Shown: positions 59,053 to 60,146 of the stretch, one piece after another
Position numbering within the stretch: position 1 is the first letter of the stretch
Layout of the letters: each line of letters opens with the position of its first letter
The notes under the pieces: generated by a model
Told to the model about the DNA's origin: nothing
Seen by the model: the letters and a program-made list of their open reading frames with translations, nothing else
The model's database searches: none
Translations under genes and position numbers: made by a program
Assembly (NCBI RefSeq): GCF_058153355.1
Contig: NZ_JBLWLY010000002.1
Length of the DNA: 64,000 nucleotides
Strand: one strand, 5' to 3'
From: a plasmid

Positions 59053-59274
59053 GTGAGTGATGAAGCCGATGAAGCATATTCAGTGACAGAACAACTGACC
59101 ATGACAGGAATAAACCGGATACGCCAGAAAATAAATGCTCATGGTATTCCTGTTTATCTCTGTGAATCATGCGGAAATCCTGTTCCGGAAGCCAGGCGGA
59201 AAATATTTCCCGGTGTGAAGTTATGTGTTGAATGTCAGGCGTATCAGGAAAGACAGAGGAAACACTATGCATAA
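59053..59274 (+). CDS. traR: TraR (DksA/TraR-type zinc-finger protein)
   Basis: 73 aa with CESCGNP...CVEC. Confidence 0.85.
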   Translation: MSDEADEAYSVTEQLTMTGINRIRQKINAHGIPVYLCESCGNPVPEARRKIFPGVKLCVECQAYQERQRKHYA

Positions 59275-59680
59275 ATCAGAAAATGAAAAAATAGATTTTA
59301 TTCTGGATGAACATGAGCGGATATTCAGAAAACAAGGTTCTTTGTGTATGGCTCTGGGTAAGGGCTTTTTAGTTATAGCTATTCTTTGTGGTGTTGCCAC
59401 ATTCTGTGTTTCTGGCCTGTATCTGAAATCCCTGTGCCTGTCCGTTGCCTGCTGTTGTGGGGTATTCAGTCGTATTTTTAATTATTACAGCGTACCGGAG
59501 GAATCACGCATGGTACTCAGTCGTCAGGAATTACTCCGGCTTATGCGTCTGACTGAAGACGTACCAGATGTGAGACAGGAACTGCTTAACCGTTTGTTGT
59601 CCGGTAAAAAACTGACTGGTCGGGATGAACAGGATATCCGGCGTCTCTGGCAGGAAAGGCAGAGGAAACACTATGCATAA
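59267..59680 (+). CDS. small membrane protein, tandem paralog 1
   Basis: ATG at 59267 overlapping traR stop; hydrophobic core; C-terminus QERQRKHYA copied from the traR 3' end. Confidence 0.55.
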   Translation: MHKSENEKIDFILDEHERIFRKQGSLCMALGKGFLVIAILCGVATFCVSGLYLKSLCLSVACCCGVFSRIFNYYSVPEESRMVLSRQELLRLMRLTEDVPDVRQELLNRLLSGKKLTGRDEQDIRRLWQERQRKHYA

Positions 59681-60146
59681 ATCAGAAACTGAAAAAATAG
59701 ATTCTATTCTGGATGAACATCAACAGATATATCGCAGACATAACCGAATAGATAAAATCCTGGCGTTTTTTGCGTGTATTGCATGGATTCCCTGTATTAT
59801 TGCTGCGTTCGGCGTTGATGGTATATATCTGAAAATCCTGTTTGCGGTCCTTGCCTGCTGTGGTGCGGTATGCTTTTTTATTTTCTTCTTCACCCTCCTG
59901 CCGGAATCACTCATGGTCCTCAGCCGTCAGAGCCTGCTTCAGCTTATGCGTCTGACTGAAGACGTACCGGATGCAAGACAGGAACTGCTTAACCGTCTGC
60001 TGTCCGGTAAAAAACTGACTGGTCGGGATGAAAAGGATATCCGGCGTCTCTGGCTGGAAAAAATGGATGCAATGCAGGCGTCTGCCGCTCGTCAGTGTGA
60101 ACAGGATACCATCCGGAAGTTTACTGAAAAGAATAAATCCGAATGA
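59673..60146 (+). CDS. small membrane protein, tandem paralog 2
   Basis: ATG at 59673; conserved N-terminus MHKSE.EKID and region LMRLTEDVPD.RQELLNRLLSGKKLTGRDE shared with paralog 1; divergent hydrophobic core. Confidence 0.55.
   Translation: MHKSETEKIDSILDEHQQIYRRHNRIDKILAFFACIAWIPCIIAAFGVDGIYLKILFAVLACCGAVCFFIFFFTLLPESLMVLSRQSLLQLMRLTEDVPDARQELLNRLLSGKKLTGRDEKDIRRLWLEKMDAMQASAARQCEQDTIRKFTEKNKSE

Follow-up and report, generated by a model that had tools for sequence, protein, structure and literature searches.

The stretch of DNA analysed here, referred to below as the window, comprises 64,000 nucleotides of a plasmid (NCBI RefSeq assembly GCF_058153355.1, contig NZ_JBLWLY010000002.1) and carries, directly after the traR gene of an F-like tra operon, two small open reading frames (ORFs) that we call paralog 1 and paralog 2. 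The two are yfhA and yfiA of the R100 plasmid lineage, a pair already known by sequence and name. The best overall explanation, to which we would give a probability of about three in four, is that the window carries the R100 pair, that the pair goes back to one duplication junction, that its hydrophobic cores are old cassettes exchanged between plasmids, and that the two copies convert one another and collapse.

The gene pair after traR and its duplication junction

A repeat search revealed two direct-repeat families with a spacing of 403-406 bp, one relating 59245-59324 to 59651-59730 with 93% identity, the other 59500-59657 to 59903-60060 with 89% identity. An earlier note on this DNA had claimed a tandem duplication of a unit of about 410 bp that includes the last codons of traR, and the nucleotide-level alignment of both units confirms this with units of 406 and 403 bp, the first of which begins in the last 30 bp of traR (Table 1). 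The encoded proteins share 61% amino acid identity over 131 residues (BLASTP E = 1e-51), which is far above chance. The same note had described their hydrophobic cores as completely different. This holds for the first transmembrane segment (TM1) and fails for the loop and the second segment (TM2), where the motifs G(L/I)YLK and ACC are kept at 40-50% amino acid identity.

R100 (NR1) has the layout traR, a 414-bp ORF, a 474-bp ORF, a 219-bp ORF, a 348-bp ORF and traC, and its ORFs between traR and traC have been named yfhA, yfiA, yfiB and yfiC, or yfhA plus yfiABC (PMC5052281, PMC2762410). Window and R100 agree in gene order, in ORF length (414 and 474 bp), in the way the first ORF overlaps the traR stop codon, and in the duplication junction. 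Paralog 1 is 98.6% identical to R100 (L003 2699-3112) in both nucleotides and amino acids, and paralog 2 is 95.1% identical in nucleotides and 91.1% in amino acids (L003 3105-3578); paralog 1 matches pCFSAN012622 at 99.8% and paralog 2 matches p100 (L008) at 99.2% nucleotide identity. An insertion of IS903D in yfhA has been published with the target repeat GCATAAATC (PMC5052281), and this repeat is the sequence at the yfhA start. UniProt lists members of the family as YfhA, YafA or "conjugative transfer protein". We found no description of the paralogy, of the traR-derived tail or of a function of yfhA, yfiA or yafA in the searchable literature, in agreement with the earlier statement that no function is known for this position.

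The wider YfhA/YfiA/YafA family was detected by tblastn in 2550 of the 72,556 PLSDB plasmids, where it is always annotated as hypothetical. Tandem carriers were counted by a core-to-core query together with the spans of the records. A type B core followed by a type A core was present in 15 of 60 evenly sampled megablast matches (1296 in total, core-to-core DNA query), the tandem form occurred in eight of 60 sampled tblastn matches (out of 2550), and both samples agree on an extrapolated number of about 320-340 PLSDB plasmids. The pair is thus not peculiar to the window, a point that goes beyond the earlier note, and R100, the reference plasmid, was found to carry the pair with an identical junction when the traR-traC interval was compared with other F-like plasmids, as the note had called for; hundreds of other plasmids carry the pair as well. 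An assembly artefact was ruled out because hundreds of complete plasmids carry the same structure. Single-copy genes after traR are commoner than the tandem: a B core with a long tail accounts for approximately half of the megablast matches (it is called "yfiA" in some records), and single-copy A-core or chimeric genes account for approximately a fifth. The exact paralog 1 protein of the window was found on 82 contigs, and the exact R100 paralog 1 protein and the exact single-copy protein of pHK23a were each found on at least 1000.

The position of the duplication boundary can be understood from the start of translation. As read from the sequence, a GAGGA motif at 59256-59260 lies 6 nt 5' of the ATG at 59267, and this ATG overlaps the traR stop codon (ATGCATAA, 59267-59274); both elements are kept in all nine plasmids compared (the window, R100 and seven others). 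Translation of the family gene starts within traR. For the second copy of a tandem duplication to be translatable, the duplicated segment must therefore begin in traR, and as it then includes the traR tail, reading of the first copy necessarily continues into the duplicated tail. The second tail copy (59651-59680) accordingly supplies the last nine codons and the stop codon of paralog 1, plus the ribosome-binding site (RBS) and the ATG of paralog 2. Paralog 1 ends in ...RRLWQERQRKHYA before its stop codon, its C-terminal helix being cut short and replaced by the nine residues QERQRKHYA; the derivation of these residues from traR, suggested earlier, was borne out by the recurrence of the traR tail at 29 of 30 positions, in frame with paralog 1. 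Searches of paralog 1 against TraR models gave no match; only the last nine TraR residues are copied, without the C4 zinc finger and the N-terminal helix that enters the RNA polymerase channel.

The junction, CTCTGG followed by CAGGAAAGGCAG, is the same in all four tandem plasmids examined (the window, pCFSAN012622, R100 and p100). When the junction sequence (CTCTGG followed by CAGGAAAGGCAGAGGAAACACTATGCATAA) is set beside the long-tail copy (CTCTGGCAGGAGAAAGTG) and traR (TATCAGGAAAGGCAG), the common stretch is CAGGA. A longer crossover homology through alleles ending in RRLWQERQDEAEE was considered and rejected: their DNA (CAGGAGAGACAAGAT) is no closer to the traR tail than that of the QEK alleles, and the microhomology stays CAGGA. 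We propose that an illegitimate crossover at this 5-nt microhomology fused ...RRLW of one copy with the traR tail that precedes the next copy, by which the upstream copy would have gained QERQRKHYA and lost its own tail. Because one junction is common to the four tandem plasmids examined, it points to a single origin of the pair; the junction is observed, and the one event that produced it and its later spread are what we infer. The combination of a B core with an A core could stem from unequal exchange between plasmids with different alleles, or from replacement of a core after duplication.

Table 1. Positions of traR, the two repeat units and their parts, with nucleotide (nt) identities between the units
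Feature	Position	Strand	Description
traR	59053-59274	+	73 aa, DksA/TraR zinc-finger protein; NCBIfam NF010268, E = 1.9e-52, full length
Repeat unit 1	59245-59650	+	406 bp
traR tail copy 1	59245-59274	+	last 30 bp of traR; carries RBS and start codon of the next gene
Paralog 1 (= R100 yfhA)	59267-59680	+	137 aa, B-type core
Paralog 1 variable core, type B	59325-59499	+	juxtamembrane segment, TM1, loop, TM2
Paralog 1 conserved 3' block, "b" variant	59500-59650	+	start of cytoplasmic domain (predicted), MVLSRQ...RRLW; dN/dS 0.2; 89% identical to 59903-60053
Repeat unit 2	59651-60053	+	403 bp
traR tail copy 2 = duplication junction	59651-59680	+	29/30 identical to 59245-59274
Paralog 2 (= R100 yfiA)	59673-60146	+	157 aa, A-type core, C-terminal helix full-length
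Paralog 2 variable core, type A	59731-59902	+	
Paralog 2 conserved 3' block, "a" variant	59903-60053	+	
Paralog 2 unique tail	60054-60146	+	distal part of long C-terminal helix; absent from paralog 1
Unit 1 vs unit 2, traR tail + 5' block			92% nt identity
Unit 1 vs unit 2, TM1 region			49% nt identity, near random
Unit 1 vs unit 2, loop + TM2			68% nt identity
Unit 1 vs unit 2, 3' block			89% nt identity

Core cassettes and exchange between the copies

The divergence of the cores had been ascribed earlier to diversifying selection or, alternatively, to recombination, and it is the second cause that the comparisons uphold. A recent duplication giving two identical copies, whose cores were then split by positive selection on a membrane-embedded specificity region, would account for ends that are 89-93% identical around a middle that is not. 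It would also suit codons 51-60, where the proportion of nonsynonymous differences (pN) is 0.35-0.38 against a proportion of synonymous differences (pS) of about 0.1, and the type A core, where pN/pS is 1.36 (12 replacement versus three silent polymorphic codons in six sequences). We nevertheless regard this history as very improbable and largely refuted. Between paralog 1 and paralog 2, synonymous divergence (dS) is 0.11 in the N block and 0.30 in the C block, where nonsynonymous divergence (dN) is 0.065; in the core dS reaches 0.69 and equals a dN of 0.71 (dN/dS about 1), and in the TM1 region pS of 0.6-0.77 amounts to saturation. Saturated synonymous sites speak for age, not for fast protein evolution. 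Moreover, when the window was compared with R100, F and the sequences L009, L012 and L015, core pS was 0.45-0.79 and that of traR and traV only 0.08-0.22, i.e., the core exceeds its flanking genes 3-8 times. As core pS lies so far above that of traR and traV on the same plasmids, the core cassettes are much older than the backbones carrying them. A-core and B-core genes also both exist in single copy on other plasmids with 96-98% nucleotide identity, pEC404/03-1 having a single-copy A-core gene directly after traR, and the equally distant core types C, D, E and F exist without any duplication.

Recombination between conserved ends is visible in the alleles themselves. On both sides of the core, L015 (C core) and L018 (A core) share 95-100% identity, and 560 bp of the downstream side are 100% identical; across approximately 200 bp of core, identity is 38-45%. 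When 53 full-length proteins were clustered at 75% identity, the N block and the C block each formed one cluster, TM1 fell into nine types and TM2 into seven, and 14 combinations of TM1 with TM2 were seen where nine would suffice, all four A/B combinations among them. This shows the cores to be old allelic cassettes, with at least nine TM1 types and seven TM2 types, which homologous recombination swaps by way of the conserved blocks at the N and C ends. In the comparison of the pSLT-type gene with the window, dS is uniform (0.45-0.56 in the backbone, 0.56-0.57 in the gene) and dN/dS is about 0.7 in the core and about 0.27 in the C block, which suggests that the hairpin formed by the core is weakly constrained, not positively selected. 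The role of a "specificity region" that had been attributed to the core is pure conjecture.

The two copies also exchange sequence with each other. The 3' block occurs in two variants, "a" (SLLQL...DARQ...EKD) and "b" (ELLRL...DVRQ...EQD). In the window and pCFSAN012622 copy 1 has "b" and copy 2 has "a", in R100 the 3' block of copy 2 is partly "b", and in p100 that of copy 1 is mostly "a". Because the variants are distributed differently across the window, R100 and p100, the alignments show gene conversion homogenising the conserved blocks between the two copies. An unequal crossover between the copies could in turn collapse the pair to a single-copy gene, and the single-copy chimeras found elsewhere would be its expected products. 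Plasmids pHK23a and R100 have identical protein accessions for TraB, TraP, TrbD, TraV, TraR, YfiB, YfiC and TraC, and their alignment shows 100% identity over 2.6 kb, the sole difference being a unit of about 403 bp that pHK23a lacks, with the breakpoint in the 3' block; the single gene of pHK23a consists of the R100 paralog 1 core and the paralog 2 tail. Collapse of the pair in pHK23a by such a crossover is the simplest explanation, and the collapsed, pHK23a-type form is now the commonest.

Protein architecture, gene loss and possible function

Both ORFs had been predicted earlier to encode membrane proteins, which is supported by two hydrophobic stretches in each paralog (Kyte-Doolittle means over 19 residues of up to 2.35-2.86) and by the helices of AlphaFold2 models; two segments of transmembrane grade were present in all six core types whose hydropathy was examined. 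The model consists of helices at residues 5-47 and 51-75, a small module and a long helix at 117-155, with a whole-protein pLDDT of 78, and the C-terminal 82 residues modelled alone reached a pLDDT of 94. Alignments, hydropathy and models place the window pair in a family with a common plan: a conserved N-terminal helix (MHKSExEKIDxILDEH), a helical hairpin of two transmembrane segments with a very short loop, a conserved helical module of approximately 45 residues with the invariant RLLSGKxLTGRD, and a long C-terminal helix, the C-terminal helical domain measuring approximately 80 aa overall. Relatives at 24-40% identity keep this plan, with the ExEKIxxILDEH helix, two hydrophobic helices, the block LSRxxLLxLMxLTEDxPDxRQELLNRLLSGKxLTGRDExDI and the long helix. 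Since the hairpin loop has only 4-6 residues and the C-terminal domain is large and charged, the proteins are predicted to lie in the inner membrane with both termini in the cytoplasm.

The family stands apart from those in the databases. Pfam gave no match to either paralog or to the alignment of the C-terminal domain, even at E <= 10, and searches of both paralogs in NCBIfam and PHROGs gave no usable family match. PADLOC returned only a match of 12-14 bits to a restriction-enzyme model over the hydrophobic part (E 0.007-0.03), and neither paralog was recognised as a defence protein; a profile search of solved structures (PDB) returned only noise with E > 0.1. When 1.84 billion representative proteins were searched exhaustively with an HMM, the 96 matches all came from the same small family, and none linked it to an annotated superfamily. 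The family is confined to enterobacterial conjugative plasmids. It lies directly after traR in F-like tra operons and near the replication region in IncI1 plasmids. In an IncI1-type contig (L006 5343-6477) the gene directly follows a gene with a ProQ/FinO domain, with the colicin Ia genes to one side and the replication gene to the other; the IncI1 member thus stands outside any tra operon. Rfam detected no RNA family in 58-61.5 kb of the window, and promoter and terminator predictors run on the same segment gave no internal promoter that was convincing, which is consistent with the position of the genes inside the long tra transcript.

Plasmid F has lost the gene. Its traR-traC spacer of 160 bp (L004 3575-3741) reads MHKSVAEHSDLIPDEHEWIFRKQKSLYM and then shifts frame to ...GNGALITGIP, a stump of the family gene that most resembles the E-type core. 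As F keeps only this frameshifted stump, the gene is dispensable for transfer, and the loss from the plasmid on which most conjugation genetics is based may explain why it was never studied. The databases hold many truncated or frameshifted entries, in pEB3 the gene is split, and the published IS903D insertion in yfhA is a further interruption that speaks for dispensability. Transposon insertion sequencing of an IncI1 plasmid classed a 169-aa "YafA" near repZ as non-essential (0.96) for maintenance and transfer (PMC4288162); from its name, its size and its position near repZ we take it to belong to the same family.

We tentatively suggest, at somewhat less than even odds, that YfhA and YfiA are accessory proteins of the donor cell acting at the inner face of the inner membrane. 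Their translation would be coupled to that of TraR in donor cells, the weakly constrained hairpin would anchor the protein in the inner membrane, and action at the membrane face would fall to the conserved cytoplasmic domain, which probably forms oligomers via the long helix; the protein would not be part of the pilus or of the secretion machinery. The stump in F, the frequency of broken copies, the failure of Pfam searches to find a domain and the non-essential YafA of IncI1 could also be taken to mean that the ORFs are non-functional leftovers decaying between traR and traC and that the repeat is neutral junk. That view is scarcely credible in the face of purifying selection on the C block (dN/dS 0.14-0.29), an architecture kept down to 24-30% identity in relatives, the conserved RBS and overlapping start, the confident domain model, and the presence of the exact R100 paralog 1 and pHK23a proteins on at least 1000 contigs each.

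Several points weigh against our account as a whole. The tra operon of the window is a decayed remnant, with traY-traE deleted and an IS66-family element at 61170, and expression of the pair here is uncertain, although both family ORFs are intact in spite of this decay. The single origin of the junction was read from four plasmids, the plasmid counts were extrapolated from samples of 60 rows, and the direction of change between R100 and pHK23a (deletion, not duplication) was deduced by parsimony and from the fact that R100 was isolated earlier. Codons 51-60 leave room for local positive selection, and the type B core is conserved within its type (pN/pS 0.18), which is a poor fit to a hairpin that serves as an anchor only. 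This last point would suit another reading, in which the hairpin is a swappable recognition module and the family an undescribed plasmid-versus-plasmid determinant of exclusion or immunity, or an anti-phage membrane determinant, of IncF and IncI1 plasmids. The core cassettes would then be kept by frequency-dependent selection, and the B-A tandem would confer dual specificity in the manner of immunity-gene arrays. Several ancient core classes of the family persist and are frequent on backbones that resemble one another, a pattern also shown by the genes known to determine specificity in F-like plasmids (traS, traA, traJ, traM and traY). In addition, family members are found on IncF and IncI1, two conjugative backbones that are unrelated, and the traR-traC interval holds other small membrane ORFs. 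We consider such a role unlikely all the same. PADLOC, PHROGs, NCBIfam and Pfam revealed no similarity to exclusion, immunity or defence families, the core evolves near neutrality where dS is uniform (the pSLT-type comparison), the pair collapses readily to one copy, with the collapsed form being the commonest, the gene is often lost or broken, and no variable partner was identified.

In E. coli, Klebsiella, Shigella and Salmonella, resistance and virulence genes are carried mainly by F-like plasmids, and approximately 2500 sequenced plasmids have a member of the present family. The account given here of old cores exchanged between plasmids covers a duplication boundary forced into traR by the embedded start, the ancient swapped cores, and the conversion and collapse of the copies. 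If the hairpin does determine specificity, the family would represent a new layer in plasmid competition; otherwise we are dealing with an ordinary accessory gene whose evolutionary history is a tidy one.

Neighbouring genes and comparison with known systems

The surroundings of the pair show further rearrangements. The ORF at 55611-56348 encodes a fusion of TraJ (1-35) with TraK (51-242); the sequence deleted at the fusion comprises the 3' part of traJ, traY, traA (pilin), traL, traE and the start of traK, and with these gone, the window plasmid cannot make a pilus. At 57786-58406 TraP (1-142) is fused in frame to TrbG (14-83), with trbD and the ends of the intervening genes lost, and at 50235-51290 a 351-aa ORF matches PsiB (1-127) and then PsiA (4-238), so that two genes of the leading region are apparently fused. 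An IS66-family element occupies 61170-63711 with terminal repeats at 61170-61231 and 63650-63711 and a transposase on the minus strand at 61201-62772. It cuts the tra operon exactly at the stop codon of the ORF 60842-61174, before traC. A partial copy with 99.8% identity lies at 43114-45082, and fragments lie at 4476-4687, 6512-7055, 27941-28086 and 29911-30122. In the spacer between traV and traR, a G+C-rich hairpin at 58935-58966 (GCCGGCAATGCCGGC) is followed by TTTCTG and is possibly an attenuator or a transcript-stabilising element.

Between the pair and the insertion element, the interval 60226-61174 contains three small ORFs (72, 134 and 110 aa), of which the second and third have a hydrophobic N terminus. 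Only 29 PLSDB records contain a traR-traC interval of this type at a query coverage of at least 80%. For the 110-aa ORF, PHROGs returned a match to "superinfection exclusion" that is not significant (E = 0.084). On other plasmids, family alleles at L012 2971-3357, L013 2965-3348, L015 3471-3848 and L018 3468-3845 end in ...GEDEQ or ...GEDGQ (L013 also in ...GGDKSE) and are followed by an overlapping ORF of 125-128 aa whose sequence suggests a multi-pass membrane protein with about four transmembrane segments; this ORF is absent from the R100-type interval and is possibly a partner gene.

Among known systems, SLATT domains and E. coli YlaC resemble the family in size and layout (a helix, a hairpin of two transmembrane segments and a helical C-terminal part), and SLATT effector domains and YlaC were among the weak Foldseek matches. 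The resemblance is one of layout only, as the Foldseek matches were not significant (E 0.7-9, TM-score 0.3-0.57) and Pfam gave no SLATT match at E <= 10. TraS, the entry-exclusion protein of F-like plasmids, is small and very hydrophobic, sits in the inner membrane and is encoded within the tra operon, and its alleles diverge strongly between related plasmids; the window pair is like it in these general respects. TraS differs in that its locus lies between traG and traT, not between traR and traC, and in that it is without the conserved soluble domain of the window family; NCBIfam and Pfam gave no sequence or profile match of the window pair to TraS. The genes traJ, traM, traY, traA, traS and finP form mosaics in which deeply diverged segments sit in near-identical backbones and are moved by homologous recombination. 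The window family carries the same signature in its core pS relative to the backbone and in the L015/L018 swap, with the difference that a partner is known for each of those genes, whereas part of the variation in the window family may be neutral.

The nearest relatives belong to the family itself. The single-copy genes after traR, i.e., the 158-aa "YafA" of pHK23a and pC15-1a with a B core and a long tail, the A-core gene of pEC404/03-1 and the pSLT type, together with yafA of IncI1, share its architecture. They differ from the pair in that they stand alone and have a full-length tail; for the IncI1 member, the location near the replication gene is a further difference. The B-core single-copy form with the long tail corresponds to R100 paralog 1 fused to the paralog 2 tail. 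The closest counterpart of all is yfhA-yfiA of R100, with the same genes, position, sizes, traR-stop overlap and junction, and its differences from the window pair are allelic only: R100 paralog 2 has undergone conversion to the "b" 3' block, and the last residues of R100 paralog 1 are QETQRKHYA.

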